This document shows positions 3,655 to 62,496 of a stretch of DNA of 64,000 nucleotides, one piece after another. The stretch comes from Thermoplasmatota archaeon (GTDB lineage Archaea > Thermoplasmatota > E2 > DHVEG-1). The position numbers and the translations under genes are program-made. The DNA is taken from NCBI GenBank assembly GCA_029939595.1, contig JAOZSQ010000004.1:1872-65871 (forward strand). The letters are read 5' to 3'. How positions within the stretch are numbered: position 1 is the first letter of the stretch; each line of letters opens with the position of its first letter. The notes below the pieces were generated by a model, which was not told the origin of the DNA, did not search any database, and worked only from the letters and a program-made list of their open reading frames with translations.

Positions 3655-5028
3655 ATGCAAGAAATTTTTCCATTTGAAACGATGCTAGTGATTTCCAGCC
3701 TTGCAGTATTCCTTTTATTGGGGGTTGTTTTAAGGGCGAAAATATCTTTTTTCCAGCGATTTCTCATTCCAAGCTGCCTTATAGGTGGGCTTATATTAAT
3801 GATTTTTATAAATCTCAAAGTTATTGTTTTATCTCATTCTACACTTGAAATCCTTGTATATCATCTATTCAATCTTTCATTTATCTCAGTTGGTTTAACG
3901 CCTGTGAGTAAATCCTTAGAACAAAAACATGGAAAATCTAGGATTAATGGGGCACTTGGAATGGGATTAATTCAAGGGGTTATATTCCCTATTCAAGCAA
4001 TCATTGGTGGTTTAATTACACTGTTATTTATCTATGCAGGTTTTGAACTTTTTTCAACATTTGGTTTTTTTGCACCACTTGGTTTCATTGAAGGCCCAGG
4101 TCAAGCCCTTTCAATGGGTCAAACTTGGGAACAGATATCTGCAACAATTTATACAAATGCAACAACTGTTGGATTGACATTTGCAGCAATTGGATTCTTT
4201 TTTTCATTTTTTGTTGGTGTTCCATTGGTTAATTGGGGTATTAAAAAAGGACTTTCAGATCAGACCCCTAAAATTCTTCCAACTGATTTTGTCAAAGGAA
4301 TAATATCAAAAAATCAAGAGAAAAAACCGGCAGGATTTGAAACAACACATCCTGCTAATATTGATGCATTATCCTTTCATTTCACACTTGTTGGACTTAC
4401 ATTTCTTATCACATATGGATTTATAAAAATTATAACTGAGTATTTACCCGATGATATTGCAAAAATGATATGGGGATTTTTCTTTTTCTTTGGTATCGTT
4501 TTTGCTTTATTGATCAAAGGTATTATGAAAAAATTCAATATGATTCATCTTATTGATAGAGAAATTCAAAAAAGAATTACAGGATGGTCAGTTGATTTTT
4601 TACTTGTTGCAACCATTGCTGCTATTCAGGTTGCTGTCATCTGGAAATATCTTCTCCCTATTTCAATAATATCTGCATTAACTGGAACTATCTCTCTTTT
4701 TGTTGTCGTCTTCATCGGTAAACGAATTTGGAAGGAGTATGCATTTGAGCGAACTGCAGGGATTTTTGGAACGGTTACAGGAACTGTACCTAGTGGATTA
4801 TTACTAGTAAGAATACTAGATCCAGATTTTAAGACACCTGCGGCTATTGACCTTGGGCTGACAAGTATTTTTGCAGCTCCTTTTATTCTTGTAGGTATGT
4901 TACTAGTTAATGCACCTGTACTTTGGGGTTGGAGTGTTCAGCAAACCTTAATCGCTTTTTTAGTTATGATGATGATTGCACTGGCTTTGATGAAAGTTTT
5001 TAGATTATGGGGAAAACCTCAATATTGA
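3655..5028 (+). CDS. gltS: Sodium/glutamate symporter (GltS family)
   Basis: Multi-TM protein; FLIPSCLIGG, GFIEGPGQALSMG, GTVTGTVPSGLLL.R..DP re-entrant motifs. Confidence 0.75.
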   Translation: MQEIFPFETMLVISSLAVFLLLGVVLRAKISFFQRFLIPSCLIGGLILMIFINLKVIVLSHSTLEILVYHLFNLSFISVGLTPVSKSLEQKHGKSRINGALGMGLIQGVIFPIQAIIGGLITLLFIYAGFELFSTFGFFAPLGFIEGPGQALSMGQTWEQISATIYTNATTVGLTFAAIGFFFSFFVGVPLVNWGIKKGLSDQTPKILPTDFVKGIISKNQEKKPAGFETTHPANIDALSFHFTLVGLTFLITYGFIKIITEYLPDDIAKMIWGFFFFFGIVFALLIKGIMKKFNMIHLIDREIQKRITGWSVDFLLVATIAAIQVAVIWKYLLPISIISALTGTISLFVVVFIGKRIWKEYAFERTAGIFGTVTGTVPSGLLLVRILDPDFKTPAAIDLGLTSIFAAPFILVGMLLVNAPVLWGWSVQQTLIAFLVMMMIALALMKVFRLWGKPQY

Positions 5029-28857: not shown

Positions 28858-30015
28858 CTATTCCTCAGATAAAACGGGTTCATTATCTGGAAAATCCCAA
28901 TCATTAAGTGGATCAATGTTCACAAGGAAAAAAAGCAGGACCGGAAGACTCTCTTTCATCCAGTATACCAGATTATTATGAGGGCCACCGCCAATATATC
29001 CTGGATCATATTTTTGTGAATAAACCTCAAAACAAAATGAAGGGACATGGAATTCTTTGAAAACCCAATGATGTACAATACCAAAACCATAAGGATTAAT
29101 ATAATCGGGGTCCAATACAGCATATTGTGTATTATTTTTTATCCAATTTAACGAAGATCTTAAGATATTTTTTTCATGTATTGAAATTTTATACTCTGGT
29201 TCATGTTCAATTTCATAAACTGGCAATATTGCATGCATTGCCGTATGACAATTCACATAAAATGATATCTTGTTGAGTGAATGCATGAAATCATAAAATG
29301 CAGCTGTTTCTGGTTCACAAAAAGGTTTTCTCCCACAGTTTGTGTATGTTTGATCTTTTCTTGGAAAATGTATATAGGGTATTTTTATAAAACCAAATAG
29401 TTTTCCAAGAGGGTAGTTATCTCCTCTAATCCTTCCAAAATGAACATCGAAGTTTCTGTTCAGATCAATTCCATTTTCGTTATATCGTTCATCGTTTTCT
29501 CTTCCATCAGGATTAAGAAGTGGGATTAGATAAATAACAGATGAGTTTAGTATATCATTAACTGAGTTGTTTTTTCCAAAATTTATGAGGAGATATTCAG
29601 CTAAATAGAGAACGATTTCACAAGCTTCCCATTCATTTCCGTGAATACATCCATCAATGACACAGTTATTTTTAATAGAATTATTATTCTCATTTGTTAT
29701 TTTCATACACCAGATATCTCTATTTTCTACACTTTTTCCAATGGAGAAAACATCAATTAAATCTGGGTATTCTTCATTATAATCATGTATAAATTGAGTT
29801 GTTTTTGTGTAATCATGGTATTGTCCATCTGTCCAGTTAGGAAGGATGAGTGGATTATCTAATGAGATCTTCTTAGGTTGTTGATTGTTTAATTCATCAC
29901 TTTTTGATTCTTTTTCTAGGCAACCAGATTGTATGCATTGAATGATGATTATAATGATTACAATAAGATGAAAAATCGATGATTTACTTCCTCCTTTTTG
30001 ATGTTTAATTGCCAT
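28858..30015 (-). CDS. Exported M14 zinc carboxypeptidase
   Basis: IHGNEW, NPDG, DLNRNF, NCHT, CFEV; signal/lipoprotein-like N-terminus. Confidence 0.85.
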   Translation of the reverse strand: MAIKHQKGGSKSSIFHLIVIIIIIIQCIQSGCLEKESKSDELNNQQPKKISLDNPLILPNWTDGQYHDYTKTTQFIHDYNEEYPDLIDVFSIGKSVENRDIWCMKITNENNNSIKNNCVIDGCIHGNEWEACEIVLYLAEYLLINFGKNNSVNDILNSSVIYLIPLLNPDGRENDERYNENGIDLNRNFDVHFGRIRGDNYPLGKLFGFIKIPYIHFPRKDQTYTNCGRKPFCEPETAAFYDFMHSLNKISFYVNCHTAMHAILPVYEIEHEPEYKISIHEKNILRSSLNWIKNNTQYAVLDPDYINPYGFGIVHHWVFKEFHVPSFCFEVYSQKYDPGYIGGGPHNNLVYWMKESLPVLLFFLVNIDPLNDWDFPDNEPVLSEE

Positions 30016-37529: not shown

Positions 37530-38873
37530 ATGGATGAAGAGAAATCAGAGTTTGGATATACAAAAAAATCTGCTTGGGAATGTTTTTCAGATGAACAGAT
37601 CCAAGAAGCTTATTCATTTTGTGAGGGTTATAAAGATTTTTTAGGAAAAGTTAAAACTGAACGCGAGGCAATTGATGTAATATCAAAAATAACTGAACAT
37701 CATAACAGAAAAACCTATGTCAATAAACATGCATCCGCTGCAATTATTACAAAAGGTTTAAAACCTCTTTCTGAGGGTTTGCGAATAATTATTTCACATG
37801 TTGATTCTCCTCGCCTTGATTTAAAACAGATCCCTCTTTTTGAGGATTCTGAAAGCAATCTTGCAATGTTTCAAACACATTATTATGGTGGAATTAAAAA
37901 GTTTCAATGGGTGACTATTCCTCTTTCAATACATGGAGTTGTAATTAAAAAAGATGGATCAAAAGTAACATTTAGTCTTGGTGAAGACATTAATGATCCA
38001 GTTTTTTTTGTTCCTGATTTACTTCCTCATCTTTCCCATAAAATTCAAGATAATAAGAAATTGAAGGATGCTATTCAGGGTGAATATCTGGATTTAGCTA
38101 TTGGAACAAAATTAGATAAAAATAGTGAAAAAAATAAATTAAAAAATGCGATTTTAAATAAGCTTCATGAAGAATATGGATTGATTGAAGAGGATTTTAT
38201 TTCTGCTGAGCTTGAAATTGTCCCCTCTTTTAAGCCTCGGGATGTTGGTTTTGATCGATCAATGATTGGTGCTTATGGCCAGGATGATCGTGTTTGTGCA
38301 TATACTTCGTTAAAAGCAGTATTAGATGTTGAAAATCCAAATTATACATCGATTGTTTTATTTGTTGATAAAGAGGAAATCGGAAGTGAAGGGAATACTT
38401 CTGCGCAATCAGCAACATTTTTACGATCATTAATTACAGAAATTGACCCTAATGTGGATATTGATAAAGTTATGCTTAATTCAAAAGTGATTTCCGCAGA
38501 TGTTGATGCAGCTATCACGCCTAATTATACAGAGGTCTTTGAATTAAAAAATGCATCTGCAATTGGAAAGGGAATTTCCATGTCAAAATATACCGGACAT
38601 GGTGGGAAATATAGTGCAAATGATGCATCAGCAGAATACGTCGGTGAAATTAGAAGGATGCTTAATGATCATCAGATCCCATGGCAAACAGGAGAATTAG
38701 GGAAGGTAGATAATGGTGGAGGTGGAACGGTTGCAAAATATTTTTCCAGACTTGGAATGTCAGTTATTGATGTCGGACCTCCGGTTCTCTGTATGCATGC
38801 GCCATTTGAAATCACAAGTAAATTGGATGTATATGCCTGTTATTTAACATATAAAGCATTTCTTACACAATAA
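37530..38873 (+). CDS. M18 family aminopeptidase
   Basis: SHVDSPRL, YYGGIKKFQW, GQDDR, DKEEIGS, SADV, MHAPFE. Confidence 0.92.
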   Translation: MDEEKSEFGYTKKSAWECFSDEQIQEAYSFCEGYKDFLGKVKTEREAIDVISKITEHHNRKTYVNKHASAAIITKGLKPLSEGLRIIISHVDSPRLDLKQIPLFEDSESNLAMFQTHYYGGIKKFQWVTIPLSIHGVVIKKDGSKVTFSLGEDINDPVFFVPDLLPHLSHKIQDNKKLKDAIQGEYLDLAIGTKLDKNSEKNKLKNAILNKLHEEYGLIEEDFISAELEIVPSFKPRDVGFDRSMIGAYGQDDRVCAYTSLKAVLDVENPNYTSIVLFVDKEEIGSEGNTSAQSATFLRSLITEIDPNVDIDKVMLNSKVISADVDAAITPNYTEVFELKNASAIGKGISMSKYTGHGGKYSANDASAEYVGEIRRMLNDHQIPWQTGELGKVDNGGGGTVAKYFSRLGMSVIDVGPPVLCMHAPFEITSKLDVYACYLTYKAFLTQ

Positions 38874-57346: not shown

Positions 57347-57568
57347 TTGGTAGAAAAAAAAGAGATAGGAAACATTTTTTCAAAAGAATTACAATGGATT
57401 AAAGACAAAGATGTACAGGAAAAAGTAATTACTGTTTGGAAAACCGCAGCAGACCAAGGAAAATGGAAAACATTTGATAAAACCCCTTTCACATTTCTAT
57501 TTAAAAATTCTGGAAAACTAGCAGATCATACAAAAAGGATAACAAATTTATGGGGGAATAATGTATGA
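57347..57568 (+). pseudogene. Probable truncated HD-domain protein (N-terminal 73 aa)
   Basis: ELQWIKD..VQEKV..VW..A...PFT......DHTKRIT ends at the first His helix with no HD motif; ATGA overlap with citF. Confidence 0.5.
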
Positions 57569-59061
57569 AAGTGAAAAATGCAGCTGGAAAAGAAATTGAA
57601 ACTAGTATTTCAGGCCAATCATTCATACCTTTTAAAGGCGGAAAAAAACACAATAGAGATTCAAAAATTGTTAGAGACATTGAAACGGCTCTTAGAAAAT
57701 GTGGTTTTAAGTCCGGAATGACAATCTCATTTCATCATCAACTAAGAAATGGGGATTATGTTGTTAACAACACGTTTGAAGCGATTAAAGACATAGGGTG
57801 TAGAGACCTTCGGCTCGCTCAAACAGCTTTATTTAATGTCCATAAACCAATAATTAATTACATAAAAGATGGTGTTGTCACTAGAATTGAAGGGAGTGTA
57901 AATGGCGTTGTTGGTGATTTCATATCCACAAACAATCCATTAGAATCACCTGTGATATTACGCTCACATGGTGGAAGATGGGGGGCAGTGAAATCAGGAG
58001 AACTCCATCCAGATATCGCAGTTATTGCTGCATCAGCAGCAGATTGTAGAGGAAATGCAACAGGACTTATCGGAGAAAGTGCTTTTGGAAACATTGCTTA
58101 TTCTCCAGTTGATGCGTGGCATGCGGATAAAGTTATTATTGTTACAGATAATATTGTGAATTACCCAAGTCCGTTTCGTGAAATATATGAAGGTCTGGTG
58201 GATTATGTCGTTGAAATTGATCAAATAGGAGATCCTAATAAAATTGTAAGTGGTTCTTTGAAAATAACAGAGGATCCAATGAAATTAAACATTGGAAAAA
58301 ACTGTGTTGATCTGATGGAAGCCGCAGGAATTGTAAAGAATGATATGATTTTTCAGGCAGGAGCAGGTGGTATTTCTCTTGCTGCATTAAAGTATCTGGG
58401 TCAACGTCTTAAAGAAAAAAACATGGTTGCAGGATGTTCAACAGGTGGACTTACAGAATTTATTGTAAACATGTACAATGACGATATATTGAAACAAGTA
58501 AATACCTGCCAGTGTTTTGATACAGTTGCAGTTGATTTCGTGAGAAATCATCAAGAAGCGATTTCTACAATTGGAGAATATTCAGATCATACGATGAAAG
58601 GAAGAAATACAGATAAGCTAGATGCTGTAATTCTAGGTGCAACAGAAGTTGATACCCGTTTTAATGTGAATGTAAACACACATAGCAATGGAAAAATGCT
58701 ACATGGGATTGGAGGTCATCAAGATGTATCAGCCACTGCAAATCTTACTATTATAACCGTTCCAGTGTTTCGAAAAAGTAATCCTATTGTTCGAGAACTT
58801 GTAACAACGATTTCAACACCTGGCGATATCATTGATGCAATTGTTACAGATAAGGGTATTGCAATTAATCCAAAACGAAAAGATCTAATAGATAAGGTTT
58901 CAGGGAAGGTTAAGATTGTGGATATTGAGGATTTGAAAAACATTGCATATGATGAGACAGGTGGCCCAATAGAGTCAGTAATTGGAGATGAAATTGTTGG
59001 TATTACAAAGTATTTTGATGGAACGGTTCTTGATAATATTTATCGGGTATTGGGGGATTGA
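57565..59061 (+). CDS. citF: Citrate lyase alpha subunit / family II CoA-transferase
   Basis: TISFHHQLRNGD, RSHGGR, FQAGAGG, GATEVD..FNVNV, GIGGHQD, DAIVTDKGIAINP.R.DL. Confidence 0.9.
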   Translation: MKVKNAAGKEIETSISGQSFIPFKGGKKHNRDSKIVRDIETALRKCGFKSGMTISFHHQLRNGDYVVNNTFEAIKDIGCRDLRLAQTALFNVHKPIINYIKDGVVTRIEGSVNGVVGDFISTNNPLESPVILRSHGGRWGAVKSGELHPDIAVIAASAADCRGNATGLIGESAFGNIAYSPVDAWHADKVIIVTDNIVNYPSPFREIYEGLVDYVVEIDQIGDPNKIVSGSLKITEDPMKLNIGKNCVDLMEAAGIVKNDMIFQAGAGGISLAALKYLGQRLKEKNMVAGCSTGGLTEFIVNMYNDDILKQVNTCQCFDTVAVDFVRNHQEAISTIGEYSDHTMKGRNTDKLDAVILGATEVDTRFNVNVNTHSNGKMLHGIGGHQDVSATANLTIITVPVFRKSNPIVRELVTTISTPGDIIDAIVTDKGIAINPKRKDLIDKVSGKVKIVDIEDLKNIAYDETGGPIESVIGDEIVGITKYFDGTVLDNIYRVLGD

Positions 59062-59069
59062 GTTTTATT

Positions 59070-59846
59070 ATGGATCCATGGAAAACAAAGATTACAAAGG
59101 TTGAACCAAATCATCTGGTTACTTGTGGTTATCGACAAGAGGATTTAATTGGGAACATCCCGTTTTCACATGTCGTTTATCTCCTATTGAAAGGTGAACT
59201 TCCTAGTGAAAAACAAGGGAAAATGATGGATGCAATTCTGACTGCATGTATAGATCATGGAGTAACTCCCCCTTCTGCAATGGCAACACGGGTGGTTGCA
59301 TCTGGAGGTGTCCCACTTCCCACAGCAGTTGCAGCTGGTATATTATCAATTGGTGATGCCCATGGTGGAGCTATTGAAAAAGGTGCAAAATTCATGCAGC
59401 AAGGAATACAAAGGATGAAACAAGAAGGATTAACAATTGAGGAAACAACAAAATTACTTGTCTCTGAAAGCAGAGAGAAAAAACAACGTATCCTTGGTTT
59501 TGGTCATCGCATTCATACATCTGATCCACGTACACAACGTTTGTTTCAACTTGCTGATGAATTAAACATAAAAGGAAATCATGTTTTACTAGCAAAATCT
59601 ATCGAAAAAGAACTAAAGGAAGTAACGGGAAGACAACTCCCAATCAATGTAGATGGAGCAATTGCAGCAATTATTTCAGATATGAATTTTGATTGGAAAC
59701 TTGGAAAAGGTTTTTTCCTTATTGGAAGAGTTGCAGGTCTTACCGCTCATACATATGAGGAACAGACAATGTTCAAACCAATGAGGAAAATGTTTACAAT
59801 AAATCATGAATATAATGGTCAAGATGAAAAAACACTTGAAAGATAA
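59070..59846 (+). CDS. Citryl-CoA lyase-like protein (short citrate-synthase fold)
   Basis: W.T.IT, DHGVTPPSA, AHGGA, GFGHRIH..DPR, NVDGAIAA; about 259 aa; start ATG 59070 (TTG 59058 possible). Confidence 0.85.
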   Translation: MDPWKTKITKVEPNHLVTCGYRQEDLIGNIPFSHVVYLLLKGELPSEKQGKMMDAILTACIDHGVTPPSAMATRVVASGGVPLPTAVAAGILSIGDAHGGAIEKGAKFMQQGIQRMKQEGLTIEETTKLLVSESREKKQRILGFGHRIHTSDPRTQRLFQLADELNIKGNHVLLAKSIEKELKEVTGRQLPINVDGAIAAIISDMNFDWKLGKGFFLIGRVAGLTAHTYEEQTMFKPMRKMFTINHEYNGQDEKTLER

Positions 59847-59884
59847 TAGAAAAAAATAATTATGAAAAACGGAGGTTAATAAAC

Positions 59885-61684
59885 ATGGGAAAAACAATTA
59901 TTCAAAAAATATTTGAGAATCATTCAGAACAAGAAGCAATCGTTGGGAATATCATTGATATCAGCATTGATGCACGTGTTGCAAGAGATTTTGGTGGAGC
60001 AAACGTTGTAAAAAATCTTGTAGATCATAACCTATTAATTGATGATCCCAAAAAAACATTTTTCACATTTGATTGTAACCCTGGTGGATGTAGTCAGAAA
60101 TATGCAGAAAATCAACATATCTGTCGATTATATGCACGAAATAATAATATCGATATTTATGATATAGATATGGGTATCGGAACACATATTGCAATAGATA
60201 AGGGCCTTATTGAACCTGGAGGAACCATTGTTTCGACAGATTCACATGCAAATATTCTAGGTGCAATTGGTGCCTTTGGTCAGGGGATGGGAGATAAAGA
60301 TATATCTCATGCATGGGCACACGGGAAGGTATGGTTTAAAGTCCCTCCATCTGTAAAAATTATTCTAAAAGGAATGCCAAAGGAGTCTACCTCTCCAAAA
60401 GATGTTGTACTTCTTATGTTAAAACAGCTTGGTGCAAATGGTCTTCTTGGATATGCAGCAGAAATACATGGAGAATATGTAGATACGCTTTCTCTTGATG
60501 GAAGGATCACGATTGCATCAATGGCTACAGAGATGGGAGGTATCATTCTTCTCTTTCCACCAAATAATGAGGTAATTAAATTTTATCAGGACAACTTGGG
60601 AAGAAAAGTACCTAACATATATGCTGATGATGATGCAGAATATGAGAAGATAATTGAAATTGATATCTCACAGAAAGGACCACAAATATCAAGACCAGGT
60701 CATCCTGAGGATGTTGTATCTGCTGATGAAGTTAAAGGAACAATTGTTGATTCAGGGTTTATTGGGTCTTGTACTAATGGACGTATGGAAGATTTAAGAG
60801 CTGTTGCATCAATATTAAAAGGTAAGAAAATTGCTCCTGGGAGAGTATTAAAAATTGTACCTGCCACAGACAGTATTTGGAAACAATGTTTAAATGAAGG
60901 TCTAATTGAGATTTTTAAAGAAGCAGGTGTATTGATTGGATCGGCAGGTTGTGCAGGTTGTGCAGCAGGACAAATAGGTCAAACTGGAAAAGGTGAAGTA
61001 GAAGTTTCAACGGGTAACAGAAATTTTGTTGGAAAACAAGGGAAAGGAGATGTATATCTTACTAGTCCTGAAACAGTTGCAGCATCGCTTATCTCCGGAG
61101 TCATTACTACAAAGGAAGAGATTTCTAAACCAATTAAATTTTCAGCAAAATCTGATATTGTGGATAAGGGGATAAAGATGGAAAAATCAACCTTCCAGGA
61201 ACCATTAAAAATGAAAGGGCGAGCGTGGGTGATAGCAAAGGACAATATTGATACTGATATGATTTTTCATAACCGGTATTTACATATCACAGATATTGAG
61301 GAAATGGGACAATATACTTTTGATAATCTCGAAGGATATGAAGATTTTGCAAAGAAAGCAAAACCTAGCGATATCATTGTTATTGGAAAAAATTTTGGTT
61401 GCGGAAGTAGCAGACAACAAGCAGTGGATTGTTTTAAATCTCTTGGAATAAGTATTATCATAGCTGAATCTTTTGGTGCAATATATGAGCGTAATGCCAT
61501 AAACAATGCAATGCCGATCCTTGTGGCTGATAATATTTCCAAAAAGATTAATGATGGAGATATTATAGAAGTAGATCTAAAAACAGGAAATATTTTAGAC
61601 AGTACACTTAAAGAGAATTTTAAGGCAAAGCCTTTTTCAAAATCTCAGATGGATATTTACATGCGCGGTGGGTTGCTTTCATAG
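59885..61684 (+). CDS. Fused LeuC/LeuD-type (homoaconitase/isopropylmalate isomerase-like) aconitase-family hydratase
   Basis: STDSH, FIGSCTNGR, GCAGCAAG [4Fe-4S] ligands; swivel domain NIDTD and NFGCGSSRQQA in the same ORF. Confidence 0.9.
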   Translation: MGKTIIQKIFENHSEQEAIVGNIIDISIDARVARDFGGANVVKNLVDHNLLIDDPKKTFFTFDCNPGGCSQKYAENQHICRLYARNNNIDIYDIDMGIGTHIAIDKGLIEPGGTIVSTDSHANILGAIGAFGQGMGDKDISHAWAHGKVWFKVPPSVKIILKGMPKESTSPKDVVLLMLKQLGANGLLGYAAEIHGEYVDTLSLDGRITIASMATEMGGIILLFPPNNEVIKFYQDNLGRKVPNIYADDDAEYEKIIEIDISQKGPQISRPGHPEDVVSADEVKGTIVDSGFIGSCTNGRMEDLRAVASILKGKKIAPGRVLKIVPATDSIWKQCLNEGLIEIFKEAGVLIGSAGCAGCAAGQIGQTGKGEVEVSTGNRNFVGKQGKGDVYLTSPETVAASLISGVITTKEEISKPIKFSAKSDIVDKGIKMEKSTFQEPLKMKGRAWVIAKDNIDTDMIFHNRYLHITDIEEMGQYTFDNLEGYEDFAKKAKPSDIIVIGKNFGCGSSRQQAVDCFKSLGISIIIAESFGAIYERNAINNAMPILVADNISKKINDGDIIEVDLKTGNILDSTLKENFKAKPFSKSQMDIYMRGGLLS

Positions 61685-61755: not shown

Positions 61756-62142
61756 ATGAAGGATGGAGAAAGGTTTGAAAAGAAAATGGAGATGGAATAT
61801 TCTTCAAATTCTGGAACGCTTCAAGTGAACGCTGAGCAAAATTCAACAATGTTTCAGGCAGAAACTCAAGAATTAGAACTTGATCCGCGTTTTGTTGATA
61901 TTCGGTCTATGAAGGTAAATAGAAATGGAGTTATTGTAAATTTTTCATCTATGGTACTATGTGAAACAGACGGAGAACAATTTATCACAAAGATGTATGG
62001 TGTAAAAATGGATGGAAAAAGTCCTGATTCTTTCTTTAACCAAATACCTTCTTTAAAAGATCATATGTTTGGAGAAAAGTGGGAAAAAGCAGTTGAACGA
62101 CAACGGGCTCGAATGGAAAAACGAAAATCAATTGAATTTTAA
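61756..62142 (+). CDS. Hypothetical protein (paralog of next gene)
   Basis: 128-aa ORF sharing EY..SG.L and F..IP.L.D patterns with 62164-62496. Confidence 0.7.
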   Translation: MKDGERFEKKMEMEYSSNSGTLQVNAEQNSTMFQAETQELELDPRFVDIRSMKVNRNGVIVNFSSMVLCETDGEQFITKMYGVKMDGKSPDSFFNQIPSLKDHMFGEKWEKAVERQRARMEKRKSIEF

Positions 62143-62163: not shown

Positions 62164-62496
62164 ATGAAAAAGGTTTATCAATATCGAAATGTAAAACATC
62201 TTGAATATATACCAAGTTCTGGTAAATTAACGATGAATATTGATGGTTCTGACGATGATTATGTCACTCAGGCAAACAATGTTGAGATGGATATTTTATC
62301 TCAAGATTTTCGTCATGTGAAGCATGTAGCAATAAAAAGTGATGCTTTACATGTTGATTTTTTAAACCCTATTAATTGTAATCTTGAATCGAGTAGATAT
62401 GACGAAAAACTCATATGCAATGTTGATCTTGAAGGTGAGAACACTACTGCATTTGTTGAGAAAATACCAGGTCTTGCAGATCGTATAATTTTATAA
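62164..62496 (+). CDS. Hypothetical protein (paralog of previous gene)
   Basis: 110-aa ORF, GGTG RBS, shared motifs as above. Confidence 0.7.
   Translation: MKKVYQYRNVKHLEYIPSSGKLTMNIDGSDDDYVTQANNVEMDILSQDFRHVKHVAIKSDALHVDFLNPINCNLESSRYDEKLICNVDLEGENTTAFVEKIPGLADRIIL

Follow-up and report, generated by a model that had tools for sequence, protein, structure and literature searches.

The question raised by this locus is whether a CoA-transferase of the citrate lyase type and a citryl-CoA lyase of the citrate-synthase (CS) fold, encoded side by side in an archaeon, form a system for splitting citrate. To our knowledge, textbooks recognise only four citrate-splitting routes, namely ACP-dependent citrate lyase, ATP-citrate lyase (ACL), citryl-CoA synthetase with citryl-CoA lyase (CCS/CCL), and reversed citrate synthase. 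The same four are the only ones covered by a 2026 survey (PMC13147460), and no published description of a pairing of CitF with CCL was found in the literature. The stretch of DNA analysed, 64,000 nucleotides and referred to as the window, belongs to a sediment archaeon of the MBG-D group (Thermoplasmata) with a genome of 2.64 Mb that is 93% complete.

The citF-ccl operon and its gene products

The operon of citF, a CS-fold lyase and a LeuCD-fusion hydratase that had been described in a first-pass annotation was recovered as open reading frames on the forward strand. The first of these, citF (57565..59061), encodes a CoA-transferase of 498 amino acids resembling the citrate lyase alpha subunit (EC 2.8.3.10-like), whose identity as a CitDEF-type alpha subunit is indicated by 430 bits to PF04223 and 347 bits to Salmonella CitF (1xr4). 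Its score against TIGR01584 is 469.6 bits, just below the equivalog cut-off of 501.45, which counts against the citrate lyase reading. The citF stop codon is followed after 8 nt by the ATG of ccl (59070..59846; 258 amino acids), which is the likelier start of that gene, with a TTG at 59058 as an alternative; a 258-residue lyase with the ATG start is also called in a 97% relative. Outside the operon, the same annotation had placed a GltS transporter in the window, of which there remains a weak match to PF03616 (32 bits) at 3655-5028.

The ccl product scores 300 bits against the citryl-CoA lyase model NF004866 (cut-off 245) and 236 bits against the CCL of Hydrogenobacter thermophilus (6hxp), compared with at most 78 bits to any other solved chain of the citrate synthase family. 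Among 21 orthologues, the His residues of the motifs DHG, HGGA and GFGHR, the Arg of DPR, the Asp of NVDG, and the Phe and Arg of FFxxGR are invariant, and all these catalytic and oxaloacetate-binding residues are common to the H. thermophilus enzyme. The lyase of about 259 residues with an intact His/His/Asp set reported at first pass is thereby borne out, and, as judged from these alignments, the protein is closely related to characterised citryl-CoA lyase and retains a complete active site. It is a stand-alone CS-fold lyase of the CCS/CCL kind with the catalytic His/His/Asp. A longer version of the lyase, of 350-360 amino acids, is also found alongside CitF.

The third gene (59885..61684) starts 38 nt beyond the ccl stop, its ATG preceded by GGAGG, and encodes an Fe-S hydro-lyase of 599 amino acids in which LeuC-like and LeuD-like parts lie within one chain. 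Although this protein had been taken for a fused aconitase, it reaches only 288.7 bits against the aconitase model NF005558 (cut-off 612), compared with 944 for the aconitase of the same genome on contig C22, and its orthology to aconitase was rejected on this score. By its sequence, the hydratase is instead tentatively assigned to the isopropylmalate/homoaconitate isomerase subfamily, scoring 386.4 bits against NF001614 (cut-off 385) and 146 bits against TIGR02087 (cut-off 109), with the isopropylmalate isomerase (IPMI) of M. jannaschii (4nqy/3vba) as the nearest solved structures. It resembles the archaeal IPMI/homoaconitase enzymes (M. jannaschii LeuCD and HacAB) in its large part (240 and 224 bits), its small part (130 and 100 bits), the cluster-binding region and the motif GxNFGCGSSRxxA, and differs from them in the fusion of its subunits into a single chain and in the position of its gene in a citF-ccl operon. 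Its specificity loop, DTDMIFHNRYLHIT, is conserved as DTDMI[FY]HNRYL[SHAT]IT in 120 of 121 sequences; the segment FHNRYL[S/H/A/T]IT is unlike both LPARYLVYT of IPMI and IPGPYLRTT of homoaconitase (HACN), and its core YL[S/H/A/T]I matches neither YLVY nor YLRT.

In relatives, citF is preceded by a gene for an HD/HDIG-domain protein, which is full length (172-173 amino acids) in 20 other loci with upstream DNA. Here it is reduced to a remnant of 73 amino acids (57347..57568, forward strand) that corresponds to residues 1-70 of the 172-residue protein, with 58% identity over this range to the HD protein of one relative (L024), the HD metal-binding part being deleted; its stop codon overlaps the citF start (ATGA). 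The same 73-residue reading frame recurs on an independent contig carrying a 97%-identical CitF, and an intact HD paralogue is present on contig C55 of the same genome.

In every one of the 21 loci retrieved with sequence beyond citF, ccl lies next to citF, at CitF identities of 60-97%, and the hydratase gene comes next in 15 of them and is missing from six, so the arrangement is not a product of chance. The supply of citrate from isocitrate, put forward at first pass as the task of the hydratase, is a conjectural role. In two relatives (G181 and G182), genes resembling LeuC/LeuD and the isopropylmalate or homoisocitrate dehydrogenases (IPMDH/HICDH) are found in a single operon together with those for CitF and the lyase. 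The CitF-CCL pair is tied genomically to an HD protein, to LeuCD-type hydro-lyases and to an IPMDH/HICDH-like dehydrogenase.

Missing citrate lyase partners and an exchangeable activation module

The absence of the canonical citrate lyase partners CitD, CitE and CitG, which had been noticed within the window, extends to the whole genome. No match was obtained there to CitD, the ACP (PF06857), or to CitG (PF01874), with positive controls detected for both, nor to CitE/HpcH (PF03328), for which the control was detected in 10 of 14 genomes; CitX and CitC are absent among the scanned neighbours of the locus. In a class-wide survey of 197 genomes of Thermoplasmata, CitF is carried by 80 of the 108 genomes of the archaeon's own family, and CitD by none of the 108. 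In other families of the class, CitD accompanies CitF in 41 of 46 CitF-bearing genomes (Fisher p = 5e-28), so the search method does detect CitD, and PF06857 finds it in 42 genomes of those families in total. Far from tracking CitD, CitF is thus unlinked to it in this family, where citF and ccl co-occur without it. In the CitF tree, the proteins linked to a CS-fold lyase form a single clade (support 100/100), and those linked or fused to CitD/E fall outside it.

The module is dispensable, as indicated by 12 family genomes, two of them single-contig, that have neither CitF nor a fusion of CCS-like and CCL parts. In another 16 family genomes without CitF, a protein of 712-718 amino acids with a full-length citrate-synthase-type domain is present. 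In the four of these examined for locus context (G016, G017, G051 and G103), this protein follows a SucC-like gene, and the two are flanked by the same HD gene on one side and by the same hydratase gene or an rSAM gene on the other; in G016, the pair was scored as SucC-like and SucD-like::CCL. CitF and the CCS-CCL fusion show zero genome overlap within the family. The position of CitF is taken in relatives by an ATP-dependent CCS-like activating enzyme, as would be expected if CitF makes free citryl-CoA, and this exchangeability argues that it does.

A search for CCS or ACL over the whole genome established that other citrate-cleaving enzymes are encoded besides the proposed citF-ccl system. 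At the locus itself there is no AclAB and no SucC/SucD-like citryl-CoA synthetase (CcsAB). Elsewhere, aclB (ATP-grasp; C22:104-1387) and aclA (a fusion of a CoA-ligase alpha domain with a CCL module; C16:59405-61213) lie at contig ends, as parts of a canonical aconitase-aclB/aclA-IDH cluster split over the two, the isocitrate dehydrogenase (IDH) being monomeric and AclB being the sole ATP-grasp_2 match above cut-off in the genome. Of the 80 family genomes with CitF, 66 also have ACL. CitF-CCL is therefore a second citrate-type system beside the canonical ACL-aconitase-IDH set, and such duplication of one reaction has to be accounted for, for instance by a different substrate, direction or regulation.

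Proposed reaction and competing readings

In view of the gene identities, the operon structure, the conserved pairing, the missing partners and the exchange with CCS-like genes, citF and ccl probably encode a two-enzyme citrate lyase that would act through free citryl-CoA, independently of both ACP and ATP. CitF would move CoA from acetyl-CoA onto citrate, yielding acetate and (3S)-citryl-CoA, and the CS-fold CCL would split the latter into oxaloacetate and acetyl-CoA, which would re-enter the CitF step. In sum, citrate would yield acetate and oxaloacetate, with acetyl-CoA in a catalytic role. Free acetyl-CoA is accepted in vitro by the alpha subunit of bacterial citrate lyase when isolated, and we infer that CitF likewise accepts it in vivo, that it acts on citrate, and that cleavage is the physiological direction. 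The ACP-free cleavage proposed at first pass survives in part, in that the lack of CitD and CitE, the CCL active site and the exchange with CCS speak for it, whereas the coexistence of ACL and a hydratase that is no aconitase speak against it.

The hydrolysis of acetyl-CoA yields about -32 to -36 kJ/mol. At 1 mM, the CCL step is given as -2.1 kJ/mol and the cleavage of citrate by citrate synthase as +38.8 kJ/mol (PMC13147460). From these values and the textbook figure for hydrolysis, the conversion of citrate to acetate and oxaloacetate at 1 mM is estimated by us at roughly -10 to -14 kJ/mol, so that cleavage would be favoured without ATP.

The proposed system shares with bacterial CitDEF (EC 4.1.3.6; E. 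coli, Klebsiella, Leuconostoc) a CitF-family CoA-transferase for the first half-reaction and the expected ATP-free net conversion. It differs in having neither ACP (CitD), nor the TIM-barrel lyase CitE, nor CitG, in its lyase of the unrelated CS fold, in a thioester carrier that must be free CoA, and in the separate clade of its CitF. With CCS/CCL of H. thermophilus and the derived ACL (AclAB/ACLY), it has in common the CCL as second enzyme, the proposed free citryl-CoA intermediate, and the fusion of CCS-like and CCL parts at the same locus in relatives; unlike these, it would form citryl-CoA by transfer from acetyl-CoA in place of ATP-dependent ligation, and would release acetate instead of net acetyl-CoA without using ATP.

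Among the alternatives, a modest chance is accorded to the same chemistry acting on a citrate homologue (homocitrate, 2-methylcitrate or citramalate), as the reaction at the C-C bond in a LeuBCD-type 2-oxoacid pathway that is separate from the TCA cycle. Such a role would suit the full canonical citrate set elsewhere in the genome, the IPMI/HACN-type hydratase with its unique loop, and the LeuBCD-type genes sharing the operon in G181 and G182. The genome also encodes a split LeuC/LeuD and one IPMDH/HICDH-like dehydrogenase (best model homoisocitrate dehydrogenase, 279 bits, below cut-off), and it has no condensing enzyme of the LeuA/HCS/CimA type, its sole PF00682 match being pyruvate carboxylase subunit B. 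Against it stand the far higher score of the lyase against the characterised citryl-CoA lyase than against other solved CS-family chains, the CCS/ACL-like nature of the swapped-in modules, and the invariance of all oxaloacetate/citrate-binding residues of citrate synthases, given that an enzyme specific for pyruvate or 2-oxoglutarate would be expected to alter the oxaloacetate pocket.

It is unlikely that the pair runs synthetically, joining oxaloacetate and acetyl-CoA to citryl-CoA and passing the CoA on to acetate, as a thioester-sparing citrate synthase that feeds 2-oxoglutarate synthesis. A canonical citrate synthase is absent from the genome and from the listed family matches, full-length forms (>420 bits) occurring only in three other families, all without CitF, and a beta-decarboxylating dehydrogenase lies in the same operon in relatives, both of which would fit this direction. 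The estimated free energy nevertheless favours cleavage; the equilibrium constant for citrate cleavage is near 0.3-1 M, and at equilibrium with physiological concentrations of acetate and oxaloacetate, citrate would stay below the micromolar range. Moreover, the ACL that this genome also encodes could produce citrate with a gain of ATP, as it reportedly does in Desulfobacter postgatei.

Fainter still is the prospect that CitF-CCL is not a stand-in for ACL but works with it in a loop of substrate-level phosphorylation, or that the CitF-CCL, HD, LeuCD and IPMDH-type genes make up a second "citrate-like" branch, complete in itself and so far undescribed, in which activation by CoA transfer and activation by ATP can replace each other. 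In the loop, ACL would run toward citrate (acetyl-CoA, oxaloacetate, ADP and Pi giving citrate, ATP and CoA) and CitF-CCL would split the citrate exergonically into acetate and oxaloacetate, so that energy-starved peptide-fermenting archaea would convert acetyl-CoA to acetate and ATP by way of citrate. Hardly credible is an adjacency devoid of functional meaning, in which CitF would serve as a general acyl-CoA:acid CoA-transferase while the CS-fold protein would act alone as a weak citrate synthase, for which the sub-cut-off CitF score and an orphan CitF elsewhere (P0125), whose neighbours are not of the citF-ccl operon kind, might be cited, against the unbroken pairing, the mutual exclusion at one slot between CitF and the CCS-CCL fusion, and the single clade of lyase-linked CitFs.

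Implications for citrate metabolism in benthic archaea

If the preferred reading of an ACP- and ATP-independent citrate lyase is true, a CoA-transferase and a citryl-CoA lyase would constitute a further route of citrate cleavage, in which one half each of two unrelated systems has been recombined. The exchange of CitF for CCS-like genes would then be a natural instance of one intermediate being activated either by ATP or by CoA transfer, with a bearing on how ACL and citrate synthase evolved. The reductive TCA cycle ("rTCA") is scored from ccl or acl marker genes in metabolic reconstructions, and the pair alters how such markers are to be read. It is also widespread, occurring in 80 of 108 species genomes of MBG-D/Thermoprofundales, which are among the most abundant groups of benthic archaea.

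The citF-ccl-hydratase operon

The genome containing the window (C117:1872-65871; genome of 2.64 Mb, 128 contigs, 93% complete) finds its best matches among uncultured Thermoplasmata of MBG-D/DHVEG-1 ('Thermoprofundales'), such as SG8-52-3 and M9B1D. The locus is composed of four co-directional elements on the forward strand, including a 73-aa ORF (57347-57568) whose stop overlaps the citF start (ATGA), citF (57565-59061, 498 aa), a gene of citrate-synthase (CS) fold termed ccl, and a LeuC-LeuD fusion encoding a hydratase (59885-61684, 599 aa), which lies 38 nt downstream of ccl with GGAGG ahead of its ATG. The likely start of ccl is the ATG at 59070, 8 nt past the citF stop, giving a product of 258 aa as in the gene call of a 97% relative (contig L046), while a TTG at 59058 represents the alternative, mechanical ORF start. 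The gene 3' of the hydratase has an AT-rich upstream region of its own. A promoter and terminator scan, based on bacterial consensus in an archaeal host, returned counts equal to those of shuffled sequences. Two small downstream ORFs, 61756-62142 (128 aa) and 62164-62496 (110 aa), match nothing in Pfam or NCBIfam; ORFs of like size and position (132 and 112 aa) occur in the closest relative, L046, and are absent from more distant loci, and the pair was therefore rejected as a hidden carrier.

CitF scores 430 bits against PF04223, 347 bits against Salmonella CitF (1xr4), and 469.6 bits against TIGR01584, under the cut-off of 501. In a representative-sequence search, where the query's own cluster was not among the matches, the nearest outgroups share at most 47% identity and include CitF-CitD-CitE fusions. 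The lyase reaches 300 bits with the NCBIfam citryl-CoA lyase (CCL) model NF004866 (cut-off 245) and 236 bits with the H. thermophilus CCL structure 6hxp (HtCCL), compared with at most 78 for citrate synthases and 65 for modules of ATP-citrate lyase (ACL). An alignment was made of 21 orthologues, HtCCL, long CS-like partners, one fusion of citryl-CoA synthetase (CCS) with CCL, and the genome's own AclA. The motifs DHG, HGGA, G(F/Y)GHR, DPR, NVDG, FFxxGR, and PMR(K), which correspond to catalytic and oxaloacetate-binding residues of citrate synthases (E. coli residue list from PMC13147460), are invariant in all 21 orthologues, and their residues are nearly all present in HtCCL and mostly in the remaining rows. 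The first-pass annotation, which had described a lyase of about 259 aa with its His/His/Asp intact, was thus correct on this point.

Wherever upstream DNA is available in the other loci (20 cases), citF comes after a gene encoding an HDIG-domain protein of 172-173 aa. In the window, only residues 1-70 of this gene remain and the HD motif is gone. An assembly artefact was rejected as the cause, since the independent contig L046, whose CitF is 97% identical, carries the same 73-aa ORF (384-605). The short ORF thus reflects a genuine lineage-specific deletion, and the operon has no strict need of the HD protein in cis. Elsewhere, an ORF of 467 aa at L033:1941-3344 consists of an N-terminal HD-protein segment fused to residues 214-497 of CitF, its C-terminal part; in this MAG, the ORF reflects a deletion or else a chimeric assembly.

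CitF without its canonical partners

Whole-genome profile searches in which the positive controls gave matches returned none for CitD, CitE/HpcH, or CitG. The reported operon of citF, lyase, and LeuCD-fusion hydratase is confirmed. The strongest control for the absence of CitD is the contrast between families. Of the class's 197 species genomes, 126 contain CitF and 42 contain CitD; within the source genome's own family, 80 of 108 genomes contain CitF and none contains CitD, whereas in other families CitD accompanies CitF in 41 of 46 genomes, often as a CitD-CitE fusion (Fisher p = 5e-28). The possibility that citF always tracks citD and citE therefore fails in this lineage. Another orphan CitF context was observed on a metagenome contig (L045, with P0125), where a CitF of 43% identity directly follows an oligopeptide-type ABC transporter, with no CitD/E and no CS-fold lyase in the 5 kb upstream.

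The association of citF with ccl was followed in loci from genomes (20) and metagenomes (three) and on one additional contig (CitF identity 60-97%). In every one of the 21 loci reaching past citF, and in L046, ccl lies directly 3' of citF. The hydratase comes after ccl in 15 of these 21 loci; in L033, the next ORF is an unrelated gene of 1228 aa encoded on the other strand, and in the five other hydratase-less loci (L023, L024, L026, L027, and L031) ccl is followed by a B12/radical-SAM gene. The product of the latter, a 439-aa B12-binding protein distantly BchE/HpnJ-like, is encoded after the lyase in both citF-ccl and CCS-CCL operons lacking the hydratase (the five loci named, 3' of ccl, and L034 and L035). 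In a maximum-likelihood tree, all CitFs linked to a CS-fold lyase form one clade (100/100 support), apart from those fused or adjacent to CitD/CitE.

Exchange of CitF and a citryl-CoA synthetase-like module

In sixteen CitF-less genomes of the family, a full-length citrate-synthase-type domain forms part of a protein of 712-718 aa, and the fusion and CitF co-occur in 0 of 16. Four of these loci were fetched (G016, G017, G051, and G103), and all four share the neighbourhood of the window, with the mevalonate-pathway AcnX genes, the HD gene, a 427-aa gene, and a 712-715-aa gene; a divergent membrane protein is located ahead of the HD gene in three of them, and the gene 3' of the 712-715-aa gene is the orthologous hydratase or the radical-SAM gene, except in G017, where an unrelated ORF occupies this position. 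In G016, the pair scored as a SucC-like protein and a SucD-like protein fused to a CCL domain (NF004866, 218 bits). A long lyase of 350-360 aa, resembling that of the fusion, accompanies CitF in three further genomes (G006, G181, and G182). The same operon slot is thus filled in three ways, pairing either CitF or CCS with either a short or a long CCL. Of the evidence available, this non-orthologous displacement argues best that CitF would supply the lyase with citryl-CoA, as CCS does.

Citrate cleavage by CitF and CCL without an ACP is well supported by comparative genomics and is probably the function of the module. Full-text literature searches found no description of a CitF and CCL pairing; citrate goes unmentioned in the main MBG-D genomics paper, and a 2026 survey lists no routes of autotrophic citrate cleavage other than ACL, CCS/CCL, and reversed citrate synthase (PMC13147460).

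The hydratase bears on a rival reading, in which the module handles a citrate homologue instead of citrate. Described as a fused aconitase in the first-pass annotation, it is not an aconitase orthologue, reaching only 289 bits with NF005558 (cut-off 612). It scores 386 against a cut-off of 385 with NF001614, the aconitase/IPM-dehydratase large-subunit subfamily, has a LeuD/DmdB-like C-terminal domain, and finds its closest solved structures in M. jannaschii IPM/citramalate isomerase and homoaconitase. Its small-subunit loop, DTDMI[F/Y]HNRYL[S/H/A/T]IT in 120 of 121 sequences (query and orthologues), differs from the specificity loops LPARYLVYT (IPMI) and IPGPYLRTT (HACN) of the M. jannaschii enzymes, and a homologue search, yielding only orthologues of 69-100% identity, is uninformative on substrate. 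Elsewhere, the genome encodes a split LeuC/LeuD pair (contig C2) and a single IPMDH/homoisocitrate-dehydrogenase-like protein (393 aa), which falls below all equivalog cut-offs; the gene immediately after it encodes an intact HD paralogue sharing 44% identity with the operon HD protein of relatives (C55:44566-46344, outside the window). No synthase of LeuA, homocitrate, or citramalate type is found in the genome, the sole HMGL-like match being pyruvate carboxylase subunit B. A citrate homologue as substrate is unlikely, as the oxaloacetate pocket of CCL is unchanged, although G181 and G182 lend it some weight by uniting LeuCD-, IPMDH/HICDH-, and HD-type genes with CitF and the lyase in one operon.

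A second module and its possible physiological context

A search for other citrate cleavers revealed that CitF-CCL is accompanied by ACL. Genome-wide, PF00285 matches just two sequences, ccl and a 602-aa reading frame running off the end of contig C16. The latter is AclA (SucD-like plus CCL module) and is followed by a monomeric IDH of 751 aa (C16:57168-61213, outside the window). At the start of contig C22, aclB is preceded by a 654-aa aconitase (NF005558, 944 bits, cut-off 612; C22:104-3363, also outside), with an AMP-forming acetyl-CoA synthetase and a class I fumarase nearby. Because these genes lie at contig ends, acn-aclB-aclA-idh is very likely one cluster split by assembly only. With the genome's AclB as query, ACL was detected in 91 of 108 family genomes, including 66 of the 80 with CitF; CitF-CCL is therefore a near-universal second module, not a replacement of ACL, and what sets it apart may be its substrate, direction, or regulation. 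Canonical citrate synthase (>420 bits) occurs only in three other families, which lack both CitF and ACL.

Published reaction energies, given for 1 mM, are -2.1 kJ/mol for CCL, -8.0 kJ/mol for ACL, and +38.8 kJ/mol for citrate synthase run in the cleavage direction (PMC13147460). With the textbook energy of acetyl-CoA hydrolysis added, we estimate about -10 to -14 kJ/mol for citrate conversion to acetate and oxaloacetate, likewise at 1 mM. Thermodynamics thus favours cleavage, and net synthesis would call for acetate and oxaloacetate at concentrations outside the physiological range.

The window encodes many NosD/beta-helix and PKD-domain surface proteins and abundant peptidases, such as an M14 carboxypeptidase (28858-30015) and an M18 aminopeptidase (37530-38873), with a C25 peptidase in neighbours. 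The GltS transporter noted earlier corresponds to a Na+/glutamate symporter-like protein (3655-5028) with only a weak match (PF03616, 32 bits). The surface proteins, peptidases, and symporter-like protein are consistent with peptide degradation, and the peptidases and transporter fit the peptide-fermenting lifestyle proposed for MBG-D (PMC6461988). One plausible route would lead from glutamate through 2-oxoglutarate and (iso)citrate to acetate and oxaloacetate.
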